A DNA stretch of 64,000 nucleotides from Escherichia phage EPIMRB01: the sequence record PQ657784; one strand, given 5' to 3'. The position numbers were made by a program, and so were the translations under genes. Positions within the stretch are counted from its first letter, which is position 1. Every line of letters begins with the position of its first letter. Positions 44,461 through 64,000 of the stretch are shown here, piece by piece. Below the pieces are notes generated by a model. That model made no database searches. It was not told the DNA's origin and saw only the letters and a list, made by a program, of their open reading frames with translations.

Positions 44461-44720
44461 TTAAAGTATTCCCGCAATTGGTCAAATCCACCAATATGAC
44501 TTCCATCAGGAGCAAATATCTGAGGCATTGTCAAGCCGATTTGAGTATCACGACCTAGTTTAGTCAGAAGCTCAGCGATTTTCTCATCATCAAAAACACC
44601 TTTTTCCGGCATAATGTTGATAAATTCAAACGGCTGTTTCTTCACAGTCAAAAGACGTTTTGCATTATCGCAATACACACATTTATGGATGTTGCTATCA
44701 TAACCATATACTTTAAACAT
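44457..44720 (-). CDS. nrdC: thioredoxin/glutaredoxin NrdC
   Basis: 87 aa, MFKVYGYDSNIHKCVYCDNAKRLL as T4 NrdC; CVYC active site. Confidence 0.9.
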   Translation of the reverse strand: MFKVYGYDSNIHKCVYCDNAKRLLTVKKQPFEFINIMPEKGVFDDEKIAELLTKLGRDTQIGLTMPQIFAPDGSHIGGFDQLREYFK

Positions 44721-44721
44721 A

Positions 44722-44964
44722 TTATTCCTTAATTCCTAGTACTTGTTTAAAAGTCTCGTCGTAATCAAGACTTTGACCCGTTTGTTCTTTATGTTTGTAT
44801 ATAATATCACTTACTTCTGATAGCATATTTTTATATGAACGAGTTAAAGCTGATTTAAGCACGCTGTATCTATCAGGAAATTTACCATGTTCATTATAAT
44901 AAGCTATTGCTAATTCACGGACTGCCTTTTCGGCAGTCTCCATATATTCTTTACGCTTTGTCAT
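44722..44964 (-). CDS. hypothetical protein
   Basis: 80 aa from ATG at 44964. Confidence 0.4.
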
Positions 44965-45247
44965 TTTCTTCTCGGTCAAATCGGTGTTTACAATGGCGAC
45001 ATTTATAACGAAGATTACTAGTATGCCAATGGACCAATTGCACCTGTTCAGTTCCACATTCAGGGCAATTAGGAACGTTTTTAGAAGCACGTTCGCGACG
45101 TTCAACCATAGCCATAATGGCATCCCAAGCCGGAGGTTTAAAATCTAAATCGTCAGTAACTAGCAGTCCTTTATCAAACCCAGCGCATGGAGTCCATTCA
45201 GGAAAATCTGAAGCTTCAGCAATATCTTCTAATAAACGCTTTTTCAT
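44951..45247 (-). CDS. hypothetical zinc-finger protein
   Basis: 98-aa ORF with CPECG...CRHCKHR. Confidence 0.45.
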
Positions 45248-46170: not shown

Positions 46171-46222
46171 GTTCTTCTCACTTGGTTAATGATTTATACT
46201 CCGAGCCATCCTTGGCTTTAAA

Positions 46223-47224: not shown

Positions 47225-47252
47225 ATTAATCTCCTCAGTAGAAAGTAAGAAC

Positions 47253-47282
47253 ATTATACCACATCCTTGTGGTAAAGTAAAC
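47253..47282 (-). promoter_or_regulatory. early promoter upstream of paralog B
   Basis: GTTTAC TTTACCACAAGGATGTGG TATAAT, identical to the rIIA.1 promoter. Confidence 0.55.
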
Positions 47283-48310
47283 TAGTTCAGTGCATTTAGT
47301 GCATTGTTCAGTTTAGAACGTTGCTTCGTGAGATTTTTGACTTTTTCTTGAGCTTTTTCTAGCATCTTTTCAGCTTCTAGCACTTCATTAGTTGCTTTAA
47401 CGAGTTCATCATCTACTGCCTTGATAGACTTCTCAATCGCATCTGCATGCCATTTTTCAACAGGTTTAAGACTCGGATTTTCAATAGGAAGAAAATTCAC
47501 TTTATTGAATTTCCATGCATCCTTATTACCTGAACTATACATCCAAAATTTAGGATCGTTTGATGAATAATTGGATAAATTTAAATTTAAGTTATCTTGC
47601 ACTTCCTGCTTTTTCTCTTGTGTGACTTCGTCCTTTCTCAAAAAATCGTATTTAAATGAAACGATCATATCAAGTTCATATGTTGTTGTGTCTAATTTAA
47701 ATCGTTCAAAACGAGGTAAAATCTTAGACTGAACAGCGGCAACAACATCCATATACTTAAATGCTTCTGTCAACTGCGATTTAAGGCATTCGCAAATTGA
47801 AAGAGAATTTTTTGTATTAGGTTTAAAGCTAATTCGTGCAGTTCTATTATTTTCTTTTAATGGTCTTACTTCCATCTGAAGAGTATAACCATCAAATTTC
47901 AGATTCTTTAAGTTAATATCAGAACCTTTTAATCGACTCGCAGTTGATAAAATTTGCTTTAATTGTCTACGGAACAGAGCAATAAATCTCCATTCAATAC
48001 GATAATGATTTGGATTGAAGAATCCAGATGATAAATCGACCTTACTTTGACCAACGCCTTGAACAAATAGAGGATTTTTATAATCAATAGTTTTACAGAA
48101 ATCGGTGAGCTGCTCACGGGCCGTCATTTGTGTAATATACCCTGCTTTACTAAAATTACGCACCCATTCACTGCTATTCGTATACTTAAAGTGATGAATA
48201 ACACGATTAACTTTATCAGGGTCTAAATTATTTTCACACAAAAATGTCATAACATCACGAGTATAGCTGGCATTACGAACCATATCTTCAATTTGAGAAC
48301 GAGTTTTCAT
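47282..48310 (-). CDS. hypothetical protein with C-terminal coiled coil (paralog C)
   Basis: 342-aa ORF; motif RQLKQILSTASRL. Confidence 0.55.
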   Translation of the reverse strand: MKTRSQIEDMVRNASYTRDVMTFLCENNLDPDKVNRVIHHFKYTNSSEWVRNFSKAGYITQMTAREQLTDFCKTIDYKNPLFVQGVGQSKVDLSSGFFNPNHYRIEWRFIALFRRQLKQILSTASRLKGSDINLKNLKFDGYTLQMEVRPLKENNRTARISFKPNTKNSLSICECLKSQLTEAFKYMDVVAAVQSKILPRFERFKLDTTTYELDMIVSFKYDFLRKDEVTQEKKQEVQDNLNLNLSNYSSNDPKFWMYSSGNKDAWKFNKVNFLPIENPSLKPVEKWHADAIEKSIKAVDDELVKATNEVLEAEKMLEKAQEKVKNLTKQRSKLNNALNALN

Positions 48311-48318
48311 GGTATTCC

Positions 48319-49206
48319 TTAAGATTTAAGTAAATCAACGATTTTAATTAACTTTTCACGCTCAGATTTAGCTTTACTACTCAATCCAGATAGTCTGAAA
48401 ATTTCATCGTCATATTGTTGAATAGAAATATTCAGCTCTTCAATTTGCTTATTAAAATAATCAATTTGTTCAGAATGTTTTTCGTTACTACGACCTGGTG
48501 CAGGTTTTGTAGGCAATTTAGTTGAACTGGATTCATCCGGGCGATAAATTAAAATACAACTTGAACCAATCGGACATTTAGCACCAGATGAATATTCTAA
48601 TGTTCCGGCTTCTTTTAAAACTTCAAAAGCTAAACAGAGATGATGCCCCATATTAACATAATCTGTAGAGCGAGCTCTGACGTAATAATCATCGCCGCGA
48701 ATACTAAATTTAAAGCATTTAAGGTCTTCTGTATTATTGGTCTTAAAAATCATTTGTTTATCTAGACCTTTAGCTAATCGAGCGCCTAATGCTAATAATC
48801 GTCGTTGATTTTCCCACAAATCTGCGATCATTTGATCGAATGATAATTTTGGCATTAGTCGACCATAAAGGTCATATCCTTTATTATAATTACGAAGGAT
48901 TTCACTCGCGTTAATACGAGACAATGCTCCAATTTTATTAAGGGCTTTCATAATGCGATTAGATAAACCCATTCCAGACCAGTTTGTTCGCTGCAAATGT
49001 TTTTCTAATCCAAATCCAATATCAACTTTAAACTTATCTAAAATTTCTGCATGAACATCTCTGTCAATAACATTCAAATCCAAAGTTGGGTTAAATCTAT
49101 GAAAAAATTTATCTGGCTCTCCACGACGAAGTACAGTCCATTCATTCAATTTTTTATTAACTAAAGATTTAATTACTGCATTGACATTATTAATTGCTAC
49201 TGACAT
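48319..49206 (-). CDS. hypothetical protein with C-terminal coiled coil (paralog D)
   Basis: 295 aa from ATG at 49206 with GAGGA SD. Confidence 0.5.
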   Translation of the reverse strand: MSVAINNVNAVIKSLVNKKLNEWTVLRRGEPDKFFHRFNPTLDLNVIDRDVHAEILDKFKVDIGFGLEKHLQRTNWSGMGLSNRIMKALNKIGALSRINASEILRNYNKGYDLYGRLMPKLSFDQMIADLWENQRRLLALGARLAKGLDKQMIFKTNNTEDLKCFKFSIRGDDYYVRARSTDYVNMGHHLCLAFEVLKEAGTLEYSSGAKCPIGSSCILIYRPDESSSTKLPTKPAPGRSNEKHSEQIDYFNKQIEELNISIQQYDDEIFRLSGLSSKAKSEREKLIKIVDLLKS

Positions 49207-49217
49207 ATTTTCCTCAC

Positions 49218-49622
49218 TCAATTTTCAATTTTACTAAATACGCAGAATATGATGGAAAAGACTATATAAGCACCGCACACAGATTGAACTAATACCATTC
49301 CAAAGAACCAGACAATATTATCAAACAGTGTCTGTTTTACGTCGAAAGGACGTAAACTTACAGTAATATTATCACCTTTTTCTATTGAAGAATACATCTC
49401 TGGAGAAATATATTCACTAAATCTATAACCGTCTTTGAGTTCATATACGGCAATAAACGATAAACTAGACCCCTTTCCTTGAGTTCCTGTAAGGGTATTA
49501 ACTATAGTAACATCATAATCTTTATAATGCATATAATCATTAATAGCATAATAACCATATGCAATTACTATACATAAACAACATATCAATAAATTCAATC
49601 TTTTAATTATCAACTGTTTCAT
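49218..49622 (-). CDS. hypothetical membrane protein
   Basis: 134-aa ORF with N- and C-terminal TM segments. Confidence 0.5.
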   Translation of the reverse strand: MKQLIIKRLNLLICCLCIVIAYGYYAINDYMHYKDYDVTIVNTLTGTQGKGSSLSFIAVYELKDGYRFSEYISPEMYSSIEKGDNITVSLRPFDVKQTLFDNIVWFFGMVLVQSVCGAYIVFSIIFCVFSKIEN

Positions 49623-49677
49623 AATAATCTCAATTAAAAGGGCTTAGAACCATTATACCATCCTTGGTATAAAGCGG

Positions 49678-50205
49678 TTATGCGAGTACCGTCTTTAACC
49701 GTTCTTCAAATTTCCGAAGAGTGTTCTGGCGTTCAGCTCTTTGCTTTTTGTAAGTTTCAATACGCTCTGAAATGAGAGTGTATCGTTCATTTACTGATTC
49801 TTTCATAAAATCAGGAATTTCACGAGAAGCTTTAATTTCATCAAATTTATCAATAACAGCTTGCTCTTCAGCAATTAAGTTATCATACATCAAAATATCT
49901 TTCTTGATGAACTCAATATCTTCTTGAGTTACACGAGATAATTTAGATGCTTTATCCTTTTTGTACTGTTCGTTAGTATCACGAGACCAGTGTAATGTAC
50001 GATTTTTATTCGTATTCTTATAAATTTCTACAATACCAATCTCATCAATAATAACGATCCAATTCCAACGGGATTTGTAAATTTGTCCTCCATCAACCGC
50101 GATTTCACCACCGATTGAGACATCATTAAAGAACTTGCTTTGAGCTTCAGATTTAAATTTACCATCATTGTAGTTTACTAAGTTGAAAATATCTTTAGCA
50201 TTCAT
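49678..50205 (-). CDS. hypothetical protein
   Basis: 175 aa from ATG at 50205 with GGAGG SD behind cassette promoter. Confidence 0.5.
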   Translation of the reverse strand: MNAKDIFNLVNYNDGKFKSEAQSKFFNDVSIGGEIAVDGGQIYKSRWNWIVIIDEIGIVEIYKNTNKNRTLHWSRDTNEQYKKDKASKLSRVTQEDIEFIKKDILMYDNLIAEEQAVIDKFDEIKASREIPDFMKESVNERYTLISERIETYKKQRAERQNTLRKFEERLKTVLA

Positions 50206-50233
50206 TTTCTGTTCCTCCGTAGTTGATAGTTGT

Positions 50234-50263
50234 ATAGTATCACAGAGGAACAGTCTTGTAAAC
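50234..50263 (-). promoter_or_regulatory. early promoter of cassette type
   Basis: GTTTAC-N18-TACTAT then ACAACTATCAACT leader and GGAGG SD. Confidence 0.55.
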
Positions 50264-50265
50264 AA

Positions 50266-50580
50266 CTAAAAGAAACTTCTTTCACAATTTTTTCCACTGA
50301 ACCACGCGCTCACTGCTTTCTTAGTCTCAGGAGCAGTGTTATCCATAAACCATTCAAAGGCAGCCTTTTTATGATTCTGGAGGGCTTCTCGGGCTTTAAT
50401 CTGCTCACGGTCTATTAACACTAACATATGAGCCTTTCTTGTCACCAAGGGCTTCTTATGATTTTTTGAATACTCCCAATCATTTGTCCATCGCATCGTT
50501 GTTGCGAACTGAAATACTGCTTCTTTAATTTTAGTTTCGTAAATTTCACGAGCCTTTGAGTATAACATCATTACCTCCAT
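50266..50580 (-). CDS. hypothetical protein
   Basis: 104-aa ORF. Confidence 0.45.
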   Translation of the reverse strand: MEVMMLYSKAREIYETKIKEAVFQFATTMRWTNDWEYSKNHKKPLVTRKAHMLVLIDREQIKAREALQNHKKAAFEWFMDNTAPETKKAVSAWFSGKNCERSFF

Positions 50581-50669
50581 TTACCAGTTTAATTCTAGTC
50601 ATCTTTTTGATGGCAGTCCATATAATCTATTTCTGAACTGCCTTTTTATCTTAGAAGGCCTCTTATGAA

Positions 50670-51638
50670 TTATTTCAGAAGAGTAACCTCAGCGATTTCT
50701 TCCCAACCGTTTTTGTCGGTCATAATAAAGTCAGCAAGATAAAGAGCAGTACGCAGTGAAACATTGCGTAAACGATTAACATTGACTTTCATCCATGATA
50801 ATGCTTTATAAGTTTCTTCATCAGAAAGACCGCGCTTTTGCATCATGTCAGTTGAAAGAATAACATCTTCAACCCTGACCATAATTTCTTCATTAGTGTG
50901 AACACCTAAATCTAAATAAACTGAGCGGGACACTAATGCTTGTAAATGTGGAGCAAGTTTAGTACCACGGTCTAATTCGCGGTCAATGTCAACGTTTGTG
51001 ATAAAAACAATCGTTCCTTTAAATTCAAACTCACGCTCAATGCCTTTTTCTTCTAAGTAAGAAGATGCAGTGCTCCAGCAGACTTTACGGGTCTCTCCAG
51101 TGTCCAGAGCAGCTTTCAGAAGATTAAGAATGTCCATATCAGAGAAAACATCCACATCATCAATCAAAAGGACAGAATTCTCTTCACGATTATTCCAAAG
51201 CTGCTCATAAAGACCAATACCAGAGATTTTACCGTTAATGCTTTTATACTCAATGTATCCAATATCATTTGCTTTATTTAAAGCTTTATCTAAAGAATAC
51301 GTTTTACCAATACCTGCTGCACCAGAGATAATTAATGAACGAATGTTTCCGTTAATAATACCATTCGTCATCATTCCCATAACATTAAATCTTTTATTAA
51401 TGCGGGTTTTCATATCTTCATATGATTCTTTAACTTCTTCAACTTTTACACCGTCATATGAAATGTCTGATTTGTAAACCCAAACACCGCGACGTTTACC
51501 GTCAATTTCAACAAAAACTTTACCATCTCCTTGTGCATCTACCGGAGCATTATCAGGGAACCACTCACCTAAGAGTTCAAAAGTTCCAGAGATTTCTTTG
51601 CCAAAGTAGATACCCTTATTGATAGTTACAGTTTTCAT
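50670..51638 (-). CDS. predicted AAA+ / P-loop ATPase
   Basis: 322 aa from ATG at 51638; Walker A SGAAGIGKT and Walker B VLLIDDVD; own early promoter and cassette leader. Confidence 0.6.
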   Translation of the reverse strand: MKTVTINKGIYFGKEISGTFELLGEWFPDNAPVDAQGDGKVFVEIDGKRRGVWVYKSDISYDGVKVEEVKESYEDMKTRINKRFNVMGMMTNGIINGNIRSLIISGAAGIGKTYSLDKALNKANDIGYIEYKSINGKISGIGLYEQLWNNREENSVLLIDDVDVFSDMDILNLLKAALDTGETRKVCWSTASSYLEEKGIEREFEFKGTIVFITNVDIDRELDRGTKLAPHLQALVSRSVYLDLGVHTNEEIMVRVEDVILSTDMMQKRGLSDEETYKALSWMKVNVNRLRNVSLRTALYLADFIMTDKNGWEEIAEVTLLK

Positions 51639-51682
51639 TTTATTCTCCAAATCCGTATCAGTTGATAGTTGTATAGTACCAT
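51632..51682. repeat. 51-bp promoter-leader cassette repeat, copy 2
   Basis: identical to 24947-24997. Confidence 0.8.
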
Positions 51683-51702
51683 AAAGCTTTATGCTTGTAA
51701 AC
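51673..51702 (-). promoter_or_regulatory. early promoter of cassette type upstream of ATPase gene
   Basis: GTTTAC-N18-TACTAT; leader identical over 51 nt to copy at 24947-24997. Confidence 0.55.
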
Positions 51703-51732
51703 CGTTCTGTGAAAAATTTTTGAAATAAAAAA

Positions 51733-51752
51733 AGGGAGCCCGAAGGCTCCCT
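51733..51752 (-). terminator. rho-independent terminator downstream of NTase gene
   Basis: AGGGAGCC-UUCG-GGCUCCCU then UUUUUUUAUUUC. Confidence 0.6.
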
Positions 51753-51753
51753 A

Positions 51754-52767
51754 TCATTTATAATAACTTCGGTGGTTTTCAAGATAGACCTTCTCAAGGA
51801 AGTCATCCCAGAAACTCATATCTACTTTTTGCTGCATACCGTTCTTAGAAGCTTCAGTAGATGCTGCTTCTACTTGATCTACCACATCTTCCAAAAACTC
51901 TTGAACTATTTTAAATGGATGTTTACCCAACTTCACGTCGAGAATAAATGGAGCATCTTGGAGTGGATAAACCAAGTCGCCAGTTTTGTAAATTTCCAAT
52001 AGTTGGAGTCCACCACGACAAGCATGACTTAGTGCTTTCCAATCAATACCTTCATTAGCTTCGGCTTTACGAGCACGTTCACCATATTCAGCATCTAATT
52101 TGTTCAGTGACTGCTTAAGCTCAATAAGAGAAAGCGTTGTCTGATATTTACGACCCAGCACTGTATAGAACGTTTGTGGACCTGTTTTCTCATGATTATG
52201 GAACACCCATTCACAGAATTCGTTTTCTGGAAGACGATGCTTAATATCTTCAATTTTAGTGCGACGTTGTCCTTGTGTTCCATCTTCTCGGTAGACATTC
52301 CGTTGATCAGGAATTTGATTAATTACTTTCAACACATCACGTAATGCAGCTAGACGAGAACCTTTAACACCATATTTAGAGGCTTGCTTGCGGACATATC
52401 CTAAATAGGATTTCATGTTAGTCGTATAAAAACGAGAACGGTTGTCTTGAATAAACTTCCACACATCAGGCAAATCAGATTTAACCACTAGTTCAGGTGG
52501 AGTGTGAAGCATATCCAATGCTACAGTTTCACCATCTGCTGCTAATTTAAAGAAATACTTAAGACTATACAATTCGTGGTCAATATCATCTTTAGTGTTT
52601 TTAGATGATGTGTTGTTGGTATTTTTACTCATGTGCTCTTTGACATTTCCGATAAGAATATCGCGAGCAGGAGGAACAAAGATTTCTTTAAAATCTACAT
52701 CAGATTCTGGGGTAGAAGTTCCATAAAGATGACTACCGAAATAGCTTTTCATTACTGTTTTCATCAT
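51754..52767 (-). CDS. predicted Pol-beta-superfamily nucleotidyltransferase-fold protein
   Basis: 337-aa ORF; N-terminal GS-x9-DVD motif (GSHLYGTSTPESDVD) plus downstream acidic residue (ALDMLH); terminator hairpin right after stop. Confidence 0.55.
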   Translation of the reverse strand: MMKTVMKSYFGSHLYGTSTPESDVDFKEIFVPPARDILIGNVKEHMSKNTNNTSSKNTKDDIDHELYSLKYFFKLAADGETVALDMLHTPPELVVKSDLPDVWKFIQDNRSRFYTTNMKSYLGYVRKQASKYGVKGSRLAALRDVLKVINQIPDQRNVYREDGTQGQRRTKIEDIKHRLPENEFCEWVFHNHEKTGPQTFYTVLGRKYQTTLSLIELKQSLNKLDAEYGERARKAEANEGIDWKALSHACRGGLQLLEIYKTGDLVYPLQDAPFILDVKLGKHPFKIVQEFLEDVVDQVEAASTEASKNGMQQKVDMSFWDDFLEKVYLENHRSYYK

Positions 52768-53225
52768 TCAGCCTTATATTCAATAACAGGACATACTTTA
52801 GCTTTACGAGCTTTTAAAAATTCAACGATAATCGATTTCTTGGGTTGAATAGGAGGTAAACCTTTATTTTTCCTATCAATGTTTTCTACGTGTAAAGCAT
52901 AATCCTTTTTCCATTTATAATCTTTATATTTTTCACGCAAATGTACAGGAATAACAAATGAACCAATAATAAGTAAAACAACCAAAAGCGCAAGTATAAA
53001 TGCTGATGGAAGCAAAGTCCATAAACTACCGAAAATAAGCCATCGTTGTAGGCTTTCTGCACAAATAATTGTTAGCCCTACAAGTATAGCACATCCAAAA
53101 ATAGAAACGAAAAATGTAGGAATGACAATAGACCAAAAATATGCGCATAATGTCTTAGGTCGTTGCCATTCATCGTTAAACAATTTGAATAATTTATAGT
53201 GCCAAGAGTTTTCATTAATAATCAT
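52764..53225 (-). CDS. hypothetical membrane protein
   Basis: 153-aa ORF with several TM segments. Confidence 0.5.
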   Translation of the reverse strand: MIINENSWHYKLFKLFNDEWQRPKTLCAYFWSIVIPTFFVSIFGCAILVGLTIICAESLQRWLIFGSLWTLLPSAFILALLVVLLIIGSFVIPVHLREKYKDYKWKKDYALHVENIDRKNKGLPPIQPKKSIIVEFLKARKAKVCPVIEYKAE

Positions 53226-53227
53226 AA

Positions 53228-53749
53228 TTATCCTTTCATTGAAGGCGTAACGGTTGTTAAATACTTAATCATAGCTTCAGCTTCTGATTTTGATAATGAA
53301 ATTTCTTCACCGTTTTGACGAATAGAAATAAAATCCGGATGACGGTCACCACCAGCTTTTAAAACACACATATAAGTATCAGTTTCGCCTTCAATATTTG
53401 AAATGATTGAAGCAGTTCCGCATGAATGTGGTTTTTGATAAATCAATACAGCTTTTCTTCCACCGTTTGACTGTTCATAGGCTTTTAATACATCAAGCAA
53501 ATCAGTTCTTTTATCAATAGCTAAAATGTTATTTTCATCTTCAATGTTAAATCCTTCGGATACTTCATAAAGCGTTACCCATAAATCACCGATGTCAATA
53601 ACAGCATTTACTTTTCCACGGCTTTCAAGAGTATGACAAATTTTCTTGATTTCGTCATAACTCATTTTAATAATATCATCTCCTTGACTAAGAAAGATGT
53701 CATTTTTAAATTCAACACGAATTAAACCACTTCCACTTGAAATAAACAT
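53228..53749 (-). CDS. hypothetical protein (paralog pair member)
   Basis: 173-aa ORF; C-terminus EAEAMIKYLTTVTPSM resembles next ORF. Confidence 0.5.
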   Translation of the reverse strand: MFISSGSGLIRVEFKNDIFLSQGDDIIKMSYDEIKKICHTLESRGKVNAVIDIGDLWVTLYEVSEGFNIEDENNILAIDKRTDLLDVLKAYEQSNGGRKAVLIYQKPHSCGTASIISNIEGETDTYMCVLKAGGDRHPDFISIRQNGEEISLSKSEAEAMIKYLTTVTPSMKG

Positions 53750-53755
53750 ATTTCC

Positions 53756-54310
53756 TCACTTTGAAATCATAGTTGGAATGACAGAATCAAGATAAGTCTT
53801 TAGCGCAATAGCTTCGTCTTTGGTAAATGTAATGATATGTGATCGAAAATCATCAATTTGACGAATAGATACTACATCTCCCTCTTCATAGCATTTTGAC
53901 ACATTTAAAATAGTTTCATCATTCTGATCGCAAGCGTTAGTAATAATAGCATTGCAATTTTTGAGCCATTTTAAACTATGTTTTCTTTCATTAGAATAAT
54001 AAAAATATTTAATCTTAGCTATAAAACTATCCCAATGGATAACTGATAAACACATTGACTCGCTTTTAATATTAAATCCTGGGCATGAAGAATAAAAATG
54101 AATTTTATGCTCATCATTAATGCTTACAATTTTATCAGTGTAAGCATATTCAATTTGAGTTAAACGAACAATTTCACTAGGTGTAAAATACAGCATATCG
54201 TCTTCTTGCGTCAAACGATACATATTATTTACTTTTTCTATAGCCAATTCACCAAAAAGTGGACTAACTTCTAATACTAATCGTTTCATATTAATCCTTT
54301 TTATTGGCAC
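53756..54310 (-). CDS. hypothetical protein (paralog pair member)
   Basis: 184-aa ORF; C-terminus DEAIALKTYLDSVIPTM. Confidence 0.5.
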   Translation of the reverse strand: MPIKRINMKRLVLEVSPLFGELAIEKVNNMYRLTQEDDMLYFTPSEIVRLTQIEYAYTDKIVSINDEHKIHFYSSCPGFNIKSESMCLSVIHWDSFIAKIKYFYYSNERKHSLKWLKNCNAIITNACDQNDETILNVSKCYEEGDVVSIRQIDDFRSHIITFTKDEAIALKTYLDSVIPTMISK

Positions 54311-54569
54311 GAATTTGTTCTAAAATTTTAGAGTATTCCTTTGTATCAGATTTACGTACAATCGATACACTATACGGCATACTATCGGTGTCTTTTATAA
54401 AGCGTTCCAAATGACATTCTAATAAAATTTCTGGATTATAAATCGTGTACATCAAATTACCTGTTGCTCCACGATATTGACAGATTTCTACTGATTGAAC
54501 ACCATTCCATAATTTTGTTAAGACCAAATCACCTACTTCTAATTTAGGAAAGCCCATGTTATTCACCAA
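54291..54569 (-). CDS. hypothetical protein
   Basis: 92-aa ORF. Confidence 0.45.
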   Translation of the reverse strand: MVNNMGFPKLEVGDLVLTKLWNGVQSVEICQYRGATGNLMYTIYNPEILLECHLERFIKDTDSMPYSVSIVRKSDTKEYSKILEQIRANKKD

Positions 54570-54744
54570 TTAAAGTTTCAATATAAGAATCAAGATTTAC
54601 TTTAGCTTCTTCCATAAGAGTTTTGTATTTAATCTTGTTGGCATGTCCGGAGAAAGCTGATTCATCAATAATTGTTGATGTATGAACAGCTTTACTATAC
54701 GTCTCAATTAATTCTCTTAATTTAAAAGCCTGCTCACTTGTCAT
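54559..54744 (-). CDS. hypothetical protein
   Basis: 61-aa ORF. Confidence 0.4.
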   Translation of the reverse strand: MTSEQAFKLRELIETYSKAVHTSTIIDESAFSGHANKIKYKTLMEEAKVNLDSYIETLIGE

Positions 54745-54876
54745 TACATACTCCTCTGAATCATATCAATAATGTTGTTCACCAAATTATAAGTAAACAT
54801 TGGGTAATTATATTGAATCATCACATACACAACAAACAAAACTTTCATTCTCTTCTCCTTGGCAGTTGACAAGATT

Positions 54877-54906
54877 ACTATACCATAACCTTGCCAACTT
54901 GTAAAC
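54877..54906 (-). promoter_or_regulatory. early promoter
   Basis: GTTTAC-N18-TATAGT. Confidence 0.5.
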
Positions 54907-54908
54907 CA

Positions 54909-55082
54909 TTAAATGACGTTTTCGATAAAATTCTGAAGCTTTGTATGAGCATCAACCATGATTTTCATTTCTTCCTTTGCGAAAGCTGTGCCTCTTTCAC
55001 GAGAAGAACATTCATAGTCAGAAACTGCATTAGCATATTCTTCAATTAGCTTCATTAAAAACATCTGCTTTTCAGTTTTCAT
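54909..55082 (-). CDS. hypothetical small protein
   Basis: 57-aa ORF read by hand with AGGTGG SD. Confidence 0.3.
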   Translation of the reverse strand: MKTEKQMFLMKLIEEYANAVSDYECSSRERGTAFAKEEMKIMVDAHTKLQNFIENVI

Positions 55083-55266
55083 TATTCCACCTAATCATTT
55101 CAAGATATTGAACTAACTTAGCTTTGGATTTATCCAAATCCTTTTTAGCTGTTTCTATACCGTCGTATGAATATCCTTCACAATGCTCAACTGCTAATTG
55201 ATATGAATCTATTTCAACATCACGTGCTAATTTAATGATTTTTTCAAACTGTTCGTGTGTTAGCAT
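55072..55266 (-). CDS. hypothetical protein
   Basis: 64-aa ORF. Confidence 0.4.
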   Translation of the reverse strand: MLTHEQFEKIIKLARDVEIDSYQLAVEHCEGYSYDGIETAKKDLDKSKAKLVQYLEMIRWNNEN

Positions 55267-55268
55267 AC

Positions 55269-55472
55269 TTAAACTCTCGTATTATGATCGATAATTTCAT
55301 CAAGAAACATATCTAACGCTTCTAAAGCATTATCAACTTTAGTTTCAAAGTCTTTAATGCCTTTATTCGAAATACCCGATGAATACCAAGCAAAGTCAAT
55401 CAGCTCTTCATCTGCTTTACGAATTGAAGCCACTAATTCCTTGATTTTATCTGCTTGCTCTATACTAATCAT
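55269..55472 (-). CDS. hypothetical protein
   Basis: 67 aa from ATG at 55472. Confidence 0.4.
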   Translation of the reverse strand: MISIEQADKIKELVASIRKADEELIDFAWYSSGISNKGIKDFETKVDNALEALDMFLDEIIDHNTRV

Positions 55473-55660
55473 TATTCTACCACATATGACAGAGAGAATA
55501 TTGCACACGCCATGTGAGTTGCAACTTCATCACACATATTATAACGTTTCTTAAGAAGTTCTACAAGTTCTTCACTAGTAACTTCATCCATGTCGACGAA
55601 AAAATCACCATTAATGATGACGTAGATATTTCCTTCTTGATTGAGTGCTTCAATTTTCAT
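55472..55660 (-). CDS. hypothetical protein
   Basis: 62 aa from ATG at 55660 behind cassette promoter and GAGGAG SD. Confidence 0.45.
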
Positions 55661-55688
55661 GATGTTCTCCTCTTTATCCGATAGTTGT

Positions 55689-55718
55689 ATAGTATCACAG
55701 CTCAAACGGAAAGTAAAC
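55689..55718 (-). promoter_or_regulatory. early promoter of cassette type
   Basis: GTTTAC-N18-TACTAT then ACAACTATC leader. Confidence 0.55.
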
Positions 55719-55733
55719 CGGTAAAATGAAAAA

Positions 55734-55751
55734 AGTCTCCCGAAGGAGACT
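55734..55751 (-). terminator. rho-independent terminator downstream of rI.-1
   Basis: AGUCUCC-UUCG-GGAGACU then UUUUUUCAUUUU. Confidence 0.6.
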
Positions 55752-55755
55752 AATG

Positions 55756-56142
55756 TTATTCGAGGGAAAGAAGATATTTACTCTGGTAAAACATTCCAGT
55801 AATATCATCTATCGTGCTTTGAATGGCTGGAGGCATTTCTTTATAAATGCTGTTAGATTGGTCTAGTATGCGATCAATCATTTTAATTGTGTCGGTAGGA
55901 AGTTTACTGGCATCTGGAATTGAAGGCGTGTATTTTCTACCAGAATACCCCAAATATTGTTCACCAAATTTATCAATCAAATCTGGCAATTCGGAGAAAA
56001 TAAAATCGTATGCTTTGTGTCTAGCATAACTTTTAGTTTCAAAATGTGCAGAATGAAAATAAGCTTGTGCAGCCATTAATAAACCTAAGTATTCATCTGC
56101 CTTTGAAGGTTTTCCACTTTGTGAAAAGTCGCTGAATTTCAT
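55756..56142 (-). CDS. rI.-1-like protein
   Basis: 128-aa ORF immediately upstream of rI; synteny. Confidence 0.5.
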
Positions 56143-56432
56143 TCAGTCTCCAATTTAATGTTCATAATTCTAGCGTATGATTGTGCCATCTCCGCGCCTC
56201 GTTCTATACATTCAAAATCAGAAGAGCACGGGTCATTTTTATAGGTCGTTCTCATAAAACTATAGAACTGTTCAGATGATTCTACGCTTTTATTTTCAAA
56301 AAGCATATAAACATGTCTAATACCAGATTCCATAAATTTATCAAAATGAGGATCGACATTCGCTTCAATCGATGGTGATAAAGCAAATGACAATCCTAGC
56401 ATGGCAAATAGTGCCGTTGCTTTTAAGGCCAT
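56139..56432 (-). CDS. rI: lysis inhibition regulator RI
   Basis: 97 aa, MALKATALFAMLGLSFALSPSIEA signal-anchor as T4 RI. Confidence 0.9.
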   Translation of the reverse strand: MALKATALFAMLGLSFALSPSIEANVDPHFDKFMESGIRHVYMLFENKSVESSEQFYSFMRTTYKNDPCSSDFECIERGAEMAQSYARIMNIKLETE

Positions 56433-56444
56433 AAAGGCCTCCTA

Positions 56445-56657
56445 TCATTTTTGTCCTGTATTTACTTTATGCCGATGCACGGCCTTAACTTTATCAAGGT
56501 ATTTTTCAAAATTTCGCAATCTAGTATAGTCTGCCGGAGATTGGTTGAGTGATACTTCTCGACGCAAAGCTGAAATGATATTTCCAACTTCCCTACGAAT
56601 TTCATCTAATTGAAGCACAGTAAGATTGCGAAGTTGCTTTTCAGTTAATTGTAGCAT
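56445..56657 (-). CDS. hypothetical protein (rI.1 position)
   Basis: 70-aa ORF. Confidence 0.45.
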
Positions 56658-56699
56658 ATATACCCCTTTAGTTAGATAAACCTATTTATAACTTTTGCA

Positions 56700-57281
56700 C
56701 TAACCGAGCTTTTTAGTTAATTCGTTCCAGTGTTTTCTACACAAAGAAACATAAATTTCATCACCAATACAGATTTGATTACCTTCTTTAACTGGTGTTC
56801 CATCTTCCATTAATCGAGCTGTCATAATCGCTTTTTTGCCGCAATGACAAACTGCCTTTAGTTCAATAAGTTTATCTGCAATCGCTAAAAGTTCTTTAGA
56901 ACCTTCAAACAATTTTCCAGCGAAATCAGTCCTTAATCCATAAGCCATAACAGGAACATTATATGTATCAACAATTCGACTTAATTGATGCACCTGTTCA
57001 GTTTTTAAAAACTGAGCTTCATCTACAAATACGCAATGAATATCTTTTTGTGCTTCAGCCCATTTATAGAACTCGAAAATATCCATATCATCTGTAATAA
57101 TATTCGCTTCCTGCTTAATTCCAATGCGAGAAACAACTTCACAGACAGAATCGCGAGTATCAATAGCAGGCTTAAGAACTAATACACCCATTCCACGTTC
57201 TTTATAATTATGTGCAGCAGTCAAAAGAGAAGCAGATTTTCCAGCATTCATTGCTGCATAAGTAAAAATTAAACTCGCCAT
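56700..57281 (-). CDS. tk: thymidine kinase
   Basis: 193 aa as T4 Tk; P-loop AMNAGKS. Confidence 0.95.
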   Translation of the reverse strand: MASLIFTYAAMNAGKSASLLTAAHNYKERGMGVLVLKPAIDTRDSVCEVVSRIGIKQEANIITDDMDIFEFYKWAEAQKDIHCVFVDEAQFLKTEQVHQLSRIVDTYNVPVMAYGLRTDFAGKLFEGSKELLAIADKLIELKAVCHCGKKAIMTARLMEDGTPVKEGNQICIGDEIYVSLCRKHWNELTKKLG

Positions 57282-57290
57282 ATCACCTTC

Positions 57291-57476
57291 TTAAAGCGTA
57301 TTCACATAAGCTATTAATTCATTTTCTTTCTTATCAAACCGATCAGCAAATTCTTCCTGCTGTTCGGGAGATAGCGGGCCGTATTCATCATAAAAGGTGT
57401 TTGCTTCTGTATGCTCATCTAGAAGTTCATGGATAAGCTCAAACAATTTATCTTTTTGTTCTTTACTCAGACTCAT
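57291..57476 (-). CDS. hypothetical protein
   Basis: 61-aa ORF. Confidence 0.45.
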   Translation of the reverse strand: MSLSKEQKDKLFELIHELLDEHTEANTFYDEYGPLSPEQQEEFADRFDKKENELIAYVNTL

Positions 57477-57646
57477 ATATTAATTTCCAGGAGTTTTAAA
57501 ATAATTCGCTTTTGCTTAAATATTTCCATAGTTAAATGATCAGTATCTTTTTGACCAATTCCAATGGCAAAACCTTTATTAGCAGCGAGTTCAATTAAAT
57601 TATCAAGCTCACGTAACACTTCGTATTGTAACTCAAAACTATTCAT
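57473..57646 (-). CDS. hypothetical small protein
   Basis: 57-aa ORF read by hand; ATGA overlaps at both ends. Confidence 0.35.
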   Translation of the reverse strand: MNSFELQYEVLRELDNLIELAANKGFAIGIGQKDTDHLTMEIFKQKRIILKLLEINI

Positions 57647-57870
57647 TTTGGTTTACCTTCTTTAACGAAATCTGGATAAGGATAAAATCCCGAATAAAAT
57701 CCTTCACCTTTATGATTGATACATCCTTTATTAGAACAATAGCACCAATAATCGAAATCACAAGTCATTTCATCGTTGCATAAAGCAAAAACAACCGGCC
57801 ACTTACACTTTTCACAGTGGGCATTTTTAAGAATACTAGTTTGGCTCATAACCATGTAACCTTTAAGCAA
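57643..57870 (-). CDS. hypothetical Cys-rich protein
   Basis: 75-aa ORF with about nine Cys. Confidence 0.45.
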   Translation of the reverse strand: MLKGYMVMSQTSILKNAHCEKCKWPVVFALCNDEMTCDFDYWCYCSNKGCINHKGEGFYSGFYPYPDFVKEGKPK

Positions 57871-58058
57871 TATTCTTCTACATGTTGTTTACGACCTTTC
57901 TTATCAATAAAGGTATATTCAACGAATGTTCCAATGTAGTCTTTATCTACATCATGTGGACTATTAATTGGGCATTTAGTACGGCAAATGCGTTCCCATT
58001 GACGAATAATTACTGCTTTGTTTTTAGGATCAAACGGATGTGGGTAATGTACTTTCAT
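57846..58058 (-). CDS. hypothetical protein
   Basis: 70-aa ORF. Confidence 0.4.
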   Translation of the reverse strand: MKVHYPHPFDPKNKAVIIRQWERICRTKCPINSPHDVDKDYIGTFVEYTFIDKKGRKQHVEEYCLKVTWL

Positions 58059-58509
58059 AATCCACCACTATTAAATCAATATCAGGAGTAAACATGTCGA
58101 TTAATTTAGAAACCTTATCCCAATCGCCGCCAGCAATACCACAACCTATACGCGGAATGTAAATTACCGGTTTAAACAAAAGGGTTTCTGCCTGTAGATT
58201 TAATTCTATCATGCAGTTTACTAAAGCACCATAATCAAGATTAGGACCTGGTTCGTATTGCGTATACAAGTTATAACATATGCCAAACCCATTAGGTTTA
58301 TGTTTAAAAACAATAGACATATCACCGAGTTTTTCACGCGAACCATATTCAGTTGTGGTCTTATCTATTTCTAAAATTTTGGGATAGGCTCTTGCTAATT
58401 GACCAGCTACACCACTGCCCATTGTATGAAAACAGTTACACCCGTGCGCAATAATATTACCTTCAAGAAAGAGGGCGACAATATCGCCCTTGATATATTT
58501 TACAATCAT
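58030..58509 (-). CDS. macro domain protein (ADP-ribose binding/processing)
   Basis: 159-aa ORF with macro-domain-like motifs (HGCNC, MGSGVAGQLA). Confidence 0.65.
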   Translation of the reverse strand: MIVKYIKGDIVALFLEGNIIAHGCNCFHTMGSGVAGQLARAYPKILEIDKTTTEYGSREKLGDMSIVFKHKPNGFGICYNLYTQYEPGPNLDYGALVNCMIELNLQAETLLFKPVIYIPRIGCGIAGGDWDKVSKLIDMFTPDIDLIVVDYESTLPTSV

Positions 58510-58853
58510 CTAGTACTCAATCCTCGATTATAAGAATCTACTAAACGGTCAACCATTGAATGACAAGCGGCTTTATCTTTTTCCTCCGCAACTGAACATT
58601 CTAGGGTATTCCACTTTTTAGCATATCGTTTTAATAATGTATCGTTTTTGTATCTGCTTGATTTATCTCTTTCTCCGTCTTTATATGCATATATTAATTT
58701 CTGCGCAAATTCAGCTTGGCATGCTTTATTTTTCCCACAATAATCTGCCGCAGTGCGGTTCACATACTCCCTAATTTCAGTATATGATGTATCTGCTGAC
58801 GCATAAGCAGAAAATGAAATTAATCCTATACATAAAACCAAAATTTTAGTCAT
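58506..58853 (-). CDS. hypothetical secreted protein
   Basis: 115-aa ORF with signal peptide. Confidence 0.5.
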   Translation of the reverse strand: MTKILVLCIGLISFSAYASADTSYTEIREYVNRTAADYCGKNKACQAEFAQKLIYAYKDGERDKSSRYKNDTLLKRYAKKWNTLECSVAEEKDKAACHSMVDRLVDSYNRGLSTR

Positions 58854-59391
58854 TTACTATTTCCAAAAGTTTATTATTTTTAAGGTAATTAGCCTTTTCT
58901 AGGACTTCAGAAGCATATTTAGAACCTGCTTTAACATTCCATCCCGAATTATAAGAGGATATTGCTTTTCTTATATCGCCCTTATGTATATTTAACCAAT
59001 AAGAAAGTTCAATGTACGCCCAGGAAGCTGAATTGGATCGTTTATTCAACATTCTTTTTATTTCAGCATCGGTCATATTATAACCAAGTTCCTTAACTCT
59101 CGCTCGCATAGTAGGCAAATAATTTTGGAACATTCCGTAAGCATGATGTTTTGGTTTAGATTTTAAATTAACTCCGCCAGAGCTTTCTTGCCATAAAATA
59201 GCAGCCATTATATGACCTAATCCGCTCTTGTGGATATTTTTGTGTGTTTTATATTTTCCATCCTTAGAAAATTGTTCCCCGAATTGATACGCGTAACGCA
59301 TGTTATCGAGTTGGACATTACTGAAAGTATGCTCGGAGCTATGTGCCATCATTGAAATGGCCAATAGACCAGCGAGTAGTGCTTTTCTCAT
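58846..59391 (-). CDS. secreted lytic-transglycosylase-like protein
   Basis: 181-aa ORF with signal peptide and WQESSGG motif. Confidence 0.5.
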   Translation of the reverse strand: MRKALLAGLLAISMMAHSSEHTFSNVQLDNMRYAYQFGEQFSKDGKYKTHKNIHKSGLGHIMAAILWQESSGGVNLKSKPKHHAYGMFQNYLPTMRARVKELGYNMTDAEIKRMLNKRSNSASWAYIELSYWLNIHKGDIRKAISSYNSGWNVKAGSKYASEVLEKANYLKNNKLLEIVND

Positions 59392-59398
59392 GTTTACC

Positions 59399-59860
59399 TC
59401 ATTGAGTTTTAATTACTGCTTTAGAAGCCTTTCCTGGTAAACGACGACTGTTGATAATTGCCATCCTACATTGAAGTGACGGGTCTTTGAACTTCTCATT
59501 AGGTTTACAAACTGTAAATCCAAGCCAAAGATTTCCATCTGTAATTTCTAAACGTCCAGGACGATATTCAACTCCATCAATAAAATCCTCATCAATGTCA
59601 GGACGCGGAGGCATACTCAGGAATTCATTAACTTCTAAAACATGGTCTTTTATTTTATGGAATAATTCAAAAACATATGTCTCATCAATCTCCCGTTGAA
59701 TTGCACGATCAAGAAGATGTTGAGAATATTTTAGATGAAACGATGAGACCCCTGCTGCTTTTGATGCCTCACGAATCTCATTGTTAATTTGACGAAACTC
59801 CGACTCAAAGTGACGACGAAGCTTATTTCGACGGATAAAAACTTCTGTATTGATAGTCAT
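59399..59860 (-). CDS. regB: endoribonuclease RegB
   Basis: 153 aa as T4 RegB; consensus early promoter upstream. Confidence 0.9.
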   Translation of the reverse strand: MTINTEVFIRRNKLRRHFESEFRQINNEIREASKAAGVSSFHLKYSQHLLDRAIQREIDETYVFELFHKIKDHVLEVNEFLSMPPRPDIDEDFIDGVEYRPGRLEITDGNLWLGFTVCKPNEKFKDPSLQCRMAIINSRRLPGKASKAVIKTQ

Positions 59861-59887
59861 GTTATTCTCCTCTTAACTGATAGAAAA

Positions 59888-59917
59888 ATTATACCACAGT
59901 CAAGAGGAAAAGTAAAC
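59888..59917 (-). promoter_or_regulatory. early promoter upstream of regB
   Basis: GTTTAC-N18-TATAAT. Confidence 0.55.
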
Positions 59918-59919
59918 AG

Positions 59920-60240
59920 TTATTCTTTAAATCTAGTCAATTTATTCATAGACTTTGAAACTTCTGCACGAACCTCATGTAGATTTTTGAGCTGTTCAAG
60001 ACGCTGCGTATAGTAAGCAATTTCATCTTCTTCGAGACAGTCCTGTGAATCTTCTTTAAGATAACGTGCATAGTCCTGAAAAGCGTTACGAACTACTTCC
60101 TGGAAATCATCAAGACTTTGAATTTTCTTAGGAGCAGCAGATACACGACGAGGGGCAGTATAATACTCATAACCAAACCCTGCGCTTAATTGAGCCATTA
60201 GTATTTTTCCTCTGGTTGGAACACTGCACGACAAGCCCAC
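59920..60240 (-). CDS. hypothetical protein
   Basis: 106-aa ORF (92 aa from internal Met). Confidence 0.45.
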
Positions 60241-60500
60241 ATACTGGCTTCTTTGAGTTTCGTTTTAGCAATAGTTAACTGATCGAGGCTTTCAGCATAA
60301 TTCTTCGCGAGTTCATCGTCTTCACAGCTATCAAATGCTTCCCAAAATTCATCGTATAAAGCATCAAAGATAAGTCCTAAACGAACTTCAGCGTCTTTGA
60401 TAGCATTCACTTTACCGATTTTCTCTTCGGTATGCGGCTTATAACCCTTAATATCTTCAATCATATTTGACTTCCTCACCAGTACATAAATCATATTCAA
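60198..60500 (-). CDS. hypothetical protein
   Basis: 100-aa ORF. Confidence 0.4.
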
Positions 60501-60678
60501 CTAAACGAATAGGTTCATGAATGCCATATCCCTGAACAGAAATTTCTGTCGTAGGATAAATTCCATCAATATCACCCATATTCCAGGCTTCATTAAATTG
60601 CTGTTCGCCTGAATTACTAAACCACTCGGCGAAAGCATTTAGCACATCTTCAGAACCTTCAATAATTATCTTTGCCAT
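60457..60678 (-). CDS. hypothetical acidic protein
   Basis: 73-aa ORF. Confidence 0.45.
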   Translation of the reverse strand: MAKIIIEGSEDVLNAFAEWFSNSGEQQFNEAWNMGDIDGIYPTTEISVQGYGIHEPIRLVEYDLCTGEEVKYD

Positions 60679-61040
60679 TACAAACTCTCGGTGAAGGTAC
60701 GAGCGATAACGTCGCGCTGCTGTTCCGGAGTCAGAGAGTTAAAGCGAACTGCATAACCTGATACACGGATGGTCAGCTGCGGATATTTTTCCGGATGCTT
60801 AACTGCATCTTCCAGAGTTTCACGACGCAGAACGTTAACGTTCAGGTGTTGACCACCTTCAATTTTAACTGTAGGTTGTGTTTCAATTTCAATTTCACGG
60901 GCATGCAAACCGTAGAAAATTTCCGGGTCTACAAAAGAGTCCTCTTTAAAGGTTTTAGAGACAATAATTCGTGCTTGAATACCATCTTCAAAATAAATAG
61001 TACCTTTATGTGTGCCTTCAAGAATTTGATATGCTTTCAT
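60678..61040 (-). CDS. autonomous glycyl radical cofactor (GrcA/YfiD-like)
   Basis: 120-aa ORF with glycyl-radical motif RVSGYAVRF near C-terminus. Confidence 0.8.
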
Positions 61041-61047
61041 ATAAACC

Positions 61048-61377
61048 TCAATTAGAAAATAAATTTATCCAAGATTGTTCTTTAATTAAAAATGGCTCAG
61101 AATCATATGCCATTAAACTTTGGGTGATTAGTCCTTTAAAAGGTCCATCAATAAATTCCATGGTAAAATATGGAATTTTATTCATTAACTGTGCGTTAGG
61201 AGCAGTGCACAAAACTCTGCATCCTTTGAATACACCCTTTTGTAATTTGTATTGCTTGGGATAAAATTCGCTCAAAATGTTATTATTTGCTAAAATTTCA
61301 AAATGATTCACCAATTTATTTTTAATAGTTTTTGGTGAAAAATAAAGATATTCGAAAAGCTGTGTGTCTGTCATCAT
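61048..61377 (-). CDS. hypothetical protein
   Basis: 109-aa ORF. Confidence 0.45.
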
Positions 61378-61973
61378 TGCATTCCAATCACAAAAAATTG
61401 AGGACGAACTGTTTCACCTGTTTCAGCATTATAGCTTCGACAACAGTGTTGTACCGTTTTAATATGGATATTGTAAATCTTATCCATATCAGGAGCTTTA
61501 ATAGGTTCGTCAATTATGTACAAGATACGAGAAAGCGATAACCCACGGAATTTATGACCTTCATTACCGATAAAACTACGGACAGAATCAGTAAATAAAC
61601 GGAATCGAATATCATCGCTAGAATAACGAGAAAATTCTTTTTCAATGTTGCCAGCAGAAATTTTAGCGTAAGCTGAAGTATTAGAAAGAACAATAACTGT
61701 TCCGCCATCATACAGCCAATTAGCGGCAAAGTTAGTCACAGCAATTGATTTACCGGATTGACGTCCACCATCTATACGAAGTGTGCAGTACTGTTTGAGC
61801 ACATCTTCCATTGGTGGAAGATAATCATTCTTACAGAGTTCTTCTACTCTAGCATCAGAATGGTGTGTAAAAGCATTCATCAGGGATAGATACGGGCCAG
61901 TTAAAAATGTTCTCATATTTTCTCTCTTAATTTTTGGGCCATTCCATGGCACATGAGTTGTCCATTCCTGCAT
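61374..61973 (-). CDS. hypothetical P-loop protein
   Basis: 199-aa ORF with GGRQSGKS Walker-A-like motif. Confidence 0.45.
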   Translation of the reverse strand: MQEWTTHVPWNGPKIKRENMRTFLTGPYLSLMNAFTHHSDARVEELCKNDYLPPMEDVLKQYCTLRIDGGRQSGKSIAVTNFAANWLYDGGTVIVLSNTSAYAKISAGNIEKEFSRYSSDDIRFRLFTDSVRSFIGNEGHKFRGLSLSRILYIIDEPIKAPDMDKIYNIHIKTVQHCCRSYNAETGETVRPQFFVIGMQ

Positions 61974-62051
61974 TACCCATTACCGCACTCAGGCTCGACC
62001 TTATCACAGGTTGGCGGGAATACCTCAAATGAGGTCCAGGTTGTTCCCATA

Positions 62052-62525
62052 TTATTTGAACGATTTAACGTACTGAATAGAACCTTTACTATTTACAAAG
62101 GCAATTTTACCATTTTTATTATACATTGTAGCAGTACGTTGATAGCCATAAGTTTGTTTACCAGATTGATAACCAACTAATGCAAAATTATCTTCACCCA
62201 TTTTATTCTGTTTAGCGCGAATGCGTTCATGACCATGTGCCATAAGAACCTTAGCATCACCAGTTGCAATGGATCGACGAGTTTTTTCATCTTCAACTGT
62301 ATTAACAAAGTCGTCAAATGAATCAAATTTAGCATGAGATTTATTATACAATTTTCCATCTACTGCATAATTATATCCCTGTACATCCATCTCAACTTCT
62401 GTACCATCATCCAATACAGCAGTAATTTTCTGTCCTTTTTTAAATTTCAAAAGATCAGTAAAAGATTCAGCAATAATTTGAGAATTAATAGCTGCTTCAG
62501 TGATAAATTCTTGATATGTTTTCAT
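62052..62525 (-). CDS. internal protein with capsid targeting sequence
   Basis: 157 aa; MKTYQEFITEA...IIAE N-terminus matches the T4 IP targeting sequence and protease site; early promoter upstream. Confidence 0.65.
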   Translation of the reverse strand: MKTYQEFITEAAINSQIIAESFTDLLKFKKGQKITAVLDDGTEVEMDVQGYNYAVDGKLYNKSHAKFDSFDDFVNTVEDEKTRRSIATGDAKVLMAHGHERIRAKQNKMGEDNFALVGYQSGKQTYGYQRTATMYNKNGKIAFVNSKGSIQYVKSFK

Positions 62526-62579
62526 GTGTTTCCTTTAAATATTTTAATTAGTAATTTGTCTCTTCAAGCAACTGTGAAT

Positions 62580-62609
62580 ATACTATCACAATTCTAGGAG
62601 AAAGTAAAC
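62580..62609 (-). promoter_or_regulatory. early promoter upstream of internal protein gene
   Basis: GTTTAC-N18-TAGTAT, weaker -10. Confidence 0.4.
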
Positions 62610-62613
62610 AACT

Positions 62614-63582
<969 letters not shown>

Positions 63583-63601
<19 letters not shown>

Positions 63602-63981
63602 TCAGTGATAAAGTTATTTAAATTTTGAGTATATTTCTTTTCATCAAAAATCTTTTGTTGTCTGCGTAGCCGCCATGGCATTTCAATGAACGTGTACCAT
63701 ATCCCAGATAATATTGCTGCTGTAAAAATATTAACAAGTATGGTTAAAAGAATCCAATCTCCTATTCTGTCCATTGGATTTTTTATAAAAAAGTAAAATA
63801 CGAATGATGTCACAGGAAGACTAATAATATACCACAGAATCATAATCTTATCTGTGAACCAATCAGCGTTCGTTAACTTAGCGCGACCATTATAAATACA
63901 CACGAATTTATCATCTGTTGCAGTAGATGGCTTAACTGGTTGATATCCCATTCTAAACTCCCTAATCAACAAATTTTTCAT
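63583..63981 (-). CDS. hypothetical membrane protein
   Basis: 132-aa ORF with TM segments. Confidence 0.45.
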
Positions 63982-64000
63982 ATCTTCGGAACAGCCATTC

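Follow-up and report, generated by a model that had tools for sequence, protein, structure and literature searches.

The e-to-vs.8 cassette site of Escherichia phage EPIMRB01 carries ip4, a T2-type gene for a predicted head-packaged protein

The gene directly downstream of the lysozyme gene e in Escherichia phage EPIMRB01 is ip4, the long-known T2-type internal protein gene of T-even phages. Sequence comparison makes this identification near-certain, and with the same near-certainty alignment places ip4 in the standard internal protein (IP) cassette site, behind a leader of the T4 ipIII/ipII type. In this study, the window denotes the whole stretch of 64,000 nucleotides that was analysed. The explanation that we prefer is that ip4 is a cassette gene whose product would be packaged in the head, injected with the DNA and most likely directed against restriction, and that denV is absent because of the cassette present. 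We hold this account, taken as a whole, to be slightly better than an even bet. Nothing in this arrangement is new: ip4 behind this leader and without denV is the standard T2-type configuration of well over a hundred sequenced phages.

The 157-residue product of the gene was examined by profile and sequence searches. Residues 1-157 aligned with the 158-position profile of Pfam DUF7412 (PF24183), a full-length match (E=5.7e-96) whose 319.4 bits exceed the cut-off of 27. A second match, with E=6e-102, was to PHROG 3155, named 'internal virion protein'. The protein was 100% identical to that of phages T2, RB18, RB33 and others, and 99.4% identical to the 'putative Ip4 internal head protein' of wV7, from which one residue differs (T76A). 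The best match of the structural model of Ip4 in BFVD was UniProt Q38388, 'Ip4 [Enterobacteria phage K3]', with 99% identity. The Ip4 of K3 and T2 is the same protein, equal in length and likewise encoded immediately after e, and nothing notable differs. The GenBank labels 'ip4' and 'ipIV' are used in the records of T2 and Yersinia phage PST; the entry of Escherichia phage AUBRB02 (OY979771.1) names the protein merely 'hypothetical protein'. AUBRB02 is 100% identical to the window over positions 59300-64000 (4.7 kb), a region in which many Tequatrovirus genomes show 95-98% identity.

Ip4 is encoded in 470 phage records, 290 of them with at least 99% identity and 306 with at least 95%. The DUF7412 family is nevertheless small, comprising 14 clusters at 90% identity, each with PF24183. 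Full-length relatives from phages of Klebsiella, Salmonella and Serratia are 61-71% conserved. A profile search of 1.84 billion representative proteins (50% identity) returned seven proteins at E<=0.001, four of them full-length, and no cellular relative at this threshold. Three new distant full-length relatives begin with or contain leaders that resemble a capsid targeting sequence (CTS), namely MNFEQFLNES, MNFKDFLNES and VTFKEIYNS. In the family alignment, residues 26-135 were strongly conserved and the linker of residues 11-25 was variable.

At the nucleotide level, ip4 differed from the T2 gene by 9 synonymous and 0 non-synonymous substitutions, and from the wV7 gene by 8 and 1, respectively. 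These counts indicate that Ip4 is under purifying selection, and it is therefore not hypervariable. An earlier sequence-only reading had taken the gene for a novel variant among hypervariable internal proteins. Its novelty is contradicted by the identity to T2 Ip4 and by the 290 nearly identical records, and its hypervariability, as far as Ip4 is concerned, by the substitution counts against T2. What varies is which cassettes fill the site, not the sequence of each internal protein; the term hypervariable fits the locus and not Ip4.

The genes of the region are all encoded on the minus strand, in the order e, ip4, vs.8, vs.7, vs.6, an ORF at the vs.5 position, vs.4, vs.3 and regB. The coordinates of the main features are collected in Table 1.

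Table 1. Features of the ip4 region, in window coordinates
Feature	Position	Strand	Basis and details
e (T4-type lysozyme), upstream neighbour	62614..63108	-	Pfam Phage_lysozyme; endolysin in AUBRB02, wV7 and T4
Conserved 88-bp IP leader, e to ip4; left boundary of the variable cassette	62526..62613	-	Alignment with T4 and T2
T4-early-type promoter in the IP leader	-35 GTTTAC 62604-62609; -10 TAGTAT 62580-62585	-	18-nt spacer
Inverted repeat flanking the -10 element	62570-62577 / 62586-62593	-	
ip4 ribosome-binding site (RBS), AAAGGAAA	62529-62536	-	
ip4, predicted precursor of internal head protein Ip4 (DUF7412)	62052..62525	-	157 aa + stop; ORF, Pfam and PHROG matches
Capsid targeting sequence MKTYQEFITE, codons 1-10	62496..62525	-	Predicted gp21 cut after Glu10 (between I-T-E and A)
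Linker, codons 11-20, with second candidate gp21 site at Glu20 (between I-A-E and S)	62466..62495	-	Family alignment, hhalign
Right cassette boundary, GGGAACAACCTGGACCTCA	62030..62048	-	3 nt past the ip4 stop in the window; alignment
vs.8 homologue (P-loop protein), downstream neighbour	61374..61973	-	PHROG 1488; 84% to T4 Vs.8 over 183 aa
regB, far end of the interval	59399..59860	-	Pfam REGB_T4, E=8e-69

We compared the leader between e and ip4 with those of T4 and T2. It was nearly identical to the T4 e-ipIII and T2 e-ip4 leaders and similar to the T4 ipIII-ipII leader. Its elements follow in the order promoter, inverted repeat around the -10 element, spacer, RBS and the ten CTS codons. The promoter was called by alignment to the T4 leaders and by the PeSL consensus of PST and T4, TTTACW-N17-TAYWAT; both hexamers fit this consensus, and the spacer is one nucleotide longer. 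A generic sigma-70 scan, whose hits did not outnumber those expected from shuffled sequence, failed to list the T4-type early promoter before ip4. No canonical late promoter (TATAAATA) was present in the ip4 leader, in which the early-type promoter alone was recognisable. It has been proposed that PeSL elements mediate the shuffling of cassettes, a notion that originated with the IP locus (PMC4122927). At the opposite end, GGGAACAACCTGGACCTCA starts 1-3 nt past the stop codon of ip4 in the window, T2 and wV7, and past that of denV in T4. Judged from these alignments, the stretch from e to vs.8 is a cassette site with fixed boundaries and variable gene content.

Next to the right boundary, the vs.8 homologue probably starts at the ATG at 61916, as in the AUBRB02 annotation; its T4-type N-terminal extension is broken by deletions of 6 nt and 1 nt. 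The homologue (61374..62028) contains the P-loop motifs GGRQSGKS and ILYIIDEP and has a weak match to a terminase-ATPase PHROG. The gene is also fragmented in the record of a T2 escape mutant. Beside the cassette boundary, the 5' region of vs.8 seems to be in decay. Two further genes of the interval carry recognisable domains. The vs.6 homologue (60678..61040, minus strand) has a glycyl-radical domain of the GrcA/YfiD type (autonomous glycyl radical cofactor), which the T4 annotation also gives. The vs.4 homologue (60198..60500, minus strand), three genes downstream of ip4, has a Pfam match, with E=1.2e-19, to the Acb2/Tad1 hairpin domain, which is named after the anti-defence proteins Acb2 and Tad1.

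The gene content of the cassette site was then compared across phages. T4 carries ipIII-ipII-denV at this position, and phages of the wV7 type carry denV-ip4, the two genes being adjacent in 165 records. In T2 and in the window, ip4 stands alone; about 140 records are of this type, an estimate by subtraction of the 165 denV-ip4 records from the 306 with Ip4 at 95% identity or more. Other combinations occur outside Escherichia phages. Salmonella phage NP4 has ip4 with another CTS protein. Klebsiella phage vB_KpnM_FRZ284 has three tandem CTS genes downstream of e (L009, 2001..3632), which encode an Ip4 homologue (69%), an IPIII homologue (87% to T4) and a 101-residue protein whose similarity is confined to the leader. 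Since both are present in FRZ284, Ip4 and IPIII are products of separate genes and not of alleles.

The sequence-only reading had counted a single IP-type gene where T4 has ipIII and ipII, and had found no denV between regB and e. Both observations were borne out. One CTS gene lies between e and vs.8, and tblastn found no denV in the interval. The ORFs between ip4 and regB were the usual vs.3-vs.8 set, denV being replaced by nothing there, and a Pfam search of the interval ORFs gave no DenV-type match. T4 DenV and wV7 DenV were searched by tblastn against the window and the remainder of AUBRB02, less about 127 bases at the start of the record, with best E-values of 5.7 and 9.9, respectively. 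As no match fell below 5.7, denV is absent from essentially the whole genome.

DenV is endonuclease V of T4, a pyrimidine-dimer DNA glycosylase, whose gene lies in this cassette site in T4 and wV7-type phages and is absent from the window. T2 lacks the v (denV) function, and its sensitivity to UV exceeds that of T4. In agreement with this classical difference, a denV+ip4 query matched the T2 record MH751506.1 at one place, over the ip4 half only. These results show that a missing denV is a frequent natural state in Tequatrovirus, including T2, and that the locus is an ordinary T2-type configuration; the T2-type cassette, with ip4 alone, explains the lack of denV. Without a pyrimidine-dimer glycosylase, the phage should resemble T2 in its UV sensitivity. 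The higher UV sensitivity that is predicted in this way is relevant to the environmental stability of phage preparations.

As an alternative to cassette exchange, a wV7-type ancestor with the order e-denV-ip4 could have lost denV through a simple internal deletion. Over the region, the window shares 97% identity with wV7, the main difference being the 403-bp denV block, and by eye the 18-nt spacer of the e-ip4 leader resembles the fused ends of denV. However, a denV remnant in this spacer was rejected: 16-18% of shuffled sequences aligned as well, so that the likeness is not significant. Moreover, the e-ipIII leader of T4, which has never adjoined denV, matches the whole 88-bp e-ip4 leader together with its spacer. 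The final codons of denV in wV7 pass into sequence that belongs to the ipII leader in T4 (AAAAATATTTACATTTAAAGG), and this suggests that denV was spliced into an IP leader in that lineage. We consider a simple deletion rather improbable, and cassette exchange is the more likely origin.

Packaging of Ip4 would depend on its N-terminal leader. The first ten residues, MKTYQEFITE, are identical at 9/10 positions to the leader MKTYQEFIAE of T4 IPII and IPIII, and residues 8-10, I-T-E, form the I-x-E motif of the prohead protease. The capsid targeting sequence that had been claimed from the sequence alone was therefore confirmed. In the family alignment, the commonest residue at the ten CTS columns was present in 82% of members on average. 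We scanned all ATG-started ORFs of at least 40 aa in the window and the rest of the AUBRB02 record, less about 127 bases at the record start. Only two N-termini reached 6/10 matches or more, those of ip4 and of a 54-residue gene 61.1 homologue; the leader of Ip4 is thus not a chance match.

A second cleavage site may follow the first. Glu20 is present in at least 90% of the Ip4 family, with I, L or M at the P3 position, and both Glu10 and Glu20 lie within hydrophobic-x-Glu motifs. The hhalign alignment puts Glu20 of Ip4 opposite the T-I-T-E site of IPI, which is followed by A, and mature IPI (PDB 2JUB) starts at residue 20, a precedent for a cut that deep. Because of this pairing and this precedent, a second gp21 cut at Glu20 is plausible by analogy with IPI. 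The predicted mature Ip4 would have 147 or 137 residues, depending on the site, with a mass of 15.5-16.5 kDa and a pI of 9.1-9.3, and would be basic like IPI, IPII and IPIII.

From what is known of T4 head assembly, the leader would direct the Ip4 precursor to the scaffolding core of the prohead. Cleavage by the protease gp21 would then remove the leader after Glu10 and possibly ten more residues at Glu20. The basic mature protein (pI about 9.2) would stay in the head and enter the cell with the DNA. The AUBRB02 annotation contains a prohead core protease, a scaffolding protein and gp68, all outside the window. Neither an experiment on the packaging of Ip4 nor a proteomic record of it was found in the searchable literature.

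The relationship between Ip4 and the known internal proteins of T4 was examined. By tblastn, the match of Ip4 to IPIII was limited to residues 1-13 (E=0.07), in keeping with the earlier expectation that the protein is not close to T4 IPIII. The match to IPII, 33% over 79 residues, was driven by the leader. The hhalign comparisons with IPIII and IPII were weak, with probabilities of 63% and 88%, respectively. Ip4 shares with IPIII and IPII the locus, the promoter, RBS and CTS of the leader region, the expected route of packaging and processing, and a basic mature form, but shows no convincing similarity to them past the leader. At the sequence level, Ip4 is not a homologue of IPII or IPIII by its mature part. 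IPI of T4, the inhibitor of GmrSD-CT596 whose structure is PDB 2JUB, can be likened to Ip4 in having a CTS-type leader that is cut about 20 residues in. The profile alignment of IPI and Ip4 was weak and covered residues 1-49 (probability 60%). In contrast to ip4, the IPI gene lies elsewhere, near gene 57B, and the mature part of IPI is half the size of that of Ip4.

The IPI gene of AUBRB02 lies outside the window (L004, 6745..7032) and is of the T4 type, with MKTFKEFTSTTTPVSTITE followed by A. As this gene is also present, the known head-cargo set of AUBRB02 is IPI and Ip4, without IPII or IPIII.

We next considered what Ip4 would do after injection. It has been reported that Ip1, Ip2 and Ip3 each inhibit one specific variant of the type IV restriction enzyme GmrSD, IPIII and IPII (ip3 and ip2) being the inhibitors of GmrSD-ECOR17 and GmrSD-ECOR21 (PMC12373910). 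Bas37_0260, a CTS-bearing protein encoded at the ipI locus of phage Bas37, inhibits McrBC (bioRxiv 10.1101/2025.11.20.689424). The suggestion of the sequence-only reading that the protein may act on a different host nuclease fits these roles by analogy. Previous work also screened ip4-10 against a panel of GmrSD variants and saw no reproducible inhibition (PMC12373910, Supplementary Fig. 9). In the same study, T2, which carries an identical Ip4, was restricted by both GmrSD-ECOR17 and GmrSD-ECOR21. These two enzymes are therefore excluded as targets of Ip4, and its targets differ from those of IPII and IPIII.

By analogy with these proteins, Ip4 would neutralise a host defence directed at incoming glucosyl-hmC DNA, and its probable target would be a type IV restriction enzyme other than those blocked by Ip1, Ip2 and Ip3. 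The window itself contains the annotated hmC pathway genes for dCMP hydroxymethylase and alpha-glucosyltransferase. We give the anti-defence reading, which rests on this analogy, roughly an even chance. A more specific form of it is that Ip4 is an injected inhibitor of a defence common to Escherichia, Klebsiella, Salmonella and Serratia, most likely of the type IV class beyond the GmrSD variants tested. A broad target of this kind would explain both the 61-71% conservation across phage genera and the distant relatives with CTS-like leaders, given that Ip1, Ip2 and Ip3 are narrowly distributed. We advance this specific form tentatively, at somewhat less than an even chance.

The basic character of mature Ip4, which it shares with the other internal proteins, is also what would be expected of a general core protein that condenses or neutralises DNA in the head or assists its exit, with no specific host target. 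Strong conservation within Tequatrovirus and across genera fits such a housekeeping role better than an arms race, and the GmrSD screen gave no target. Against this, ip4 is dispensable at the level of the family, as T4 is without ip4 and has ipIII and ipII instead. All internal proteins with a known function are specific inhibitors of restriction, and accessory genes for host range are typically present or absent as cassettes (PMC4122927). We consider a general core protein unlikely.

Another possibility is that Ip4 is an injected effector, perhaps an enzyme, that acts on a host function or on a further defence system, one that detects DNA or proteins as they enter, and not on type IV restriction. 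Packaged T4 proteins such as Alt are enzymes, and two alt genes are annotated in the genome. The negative GmrSD screen would also fit. The AlphaFold2 model of Ip4, which is of moderate confidence (pLDDT 72, pTM 0.64), shows one long helix at the N-terminus together with beta strands and three short helices. Many invariant polar and aromatic residues, among them H64, H99, E111, D112, K58, K62, R101 and several Tyr, lie in conserved loops, where model confidence is low; such residues could mark an active or binding site. However, no enzyme family was matched in searches of Pfam, NCBIfam or PDB sequences: Pfam gave DUF7412 alone and NCBIfam gave nothing. Foldseek of the model against the PDB returned nothing at E<=0.001, and the BFVD search, with Ip4 of K3 as its sole match, provided no informative structural neighbour. 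In addition, the family has only seven representatives at E<=0.001, and all four that are full-length have a CTS-like leader, in three of them at the very start. An effector of this kind is likewise of low probability, and an inhibitor of restriction remains the reading that we prefer. A PDB sequence match of Ip4 to a designed Kelch-type protein was dismissed as a repeat-driven artefact.

Ip4 is among the commonest head-packaged proteins predicted for therapeutic T4-like coliphages. Its target, if identified, would add a matched pair to the arms race between type IV restriction enzymes and internal proteins and would help the prediction of host range.

Other observations were made in the genome. 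The gene 61.1 homologue (17303..17467, minus strand; 54 aa) lies directly upstream of the primase gene 61 in the direction of transcription. Its product starts with MKTYKEFIKE, which agrees at 8/10 positions with the IP capsid targeting sequence and contains an I-K-E cleavage motif, and continues with a tail rich in Gly, Lys and Glu. It matches PHROG 1823 and has no Pfam match. From these sequence features, the product may be a short peptide that is packaged.

Between gene 42 and uvsX, the window encodes a 280-residue glycosyltransferase of the TAGT family (22334..23176, minus strand; Pfam PF20691, E=1.6e-9). T4 has its 351-residue beta-glucosyltransferase at this position. This suggests that glucosylation of the hmC DNA is T2-like rather than T4-like.

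Finally, the window spans the end and the start of the linear AUBRB02 record. It starts at record position 130758 and falls into two parts, 1..36114 and 36115..64000, with an offset of about 127 bases. Because the window crosses the end of the record with this offset, the AUBRB02 assembly appears to be circularly permuted or terminally redundant.
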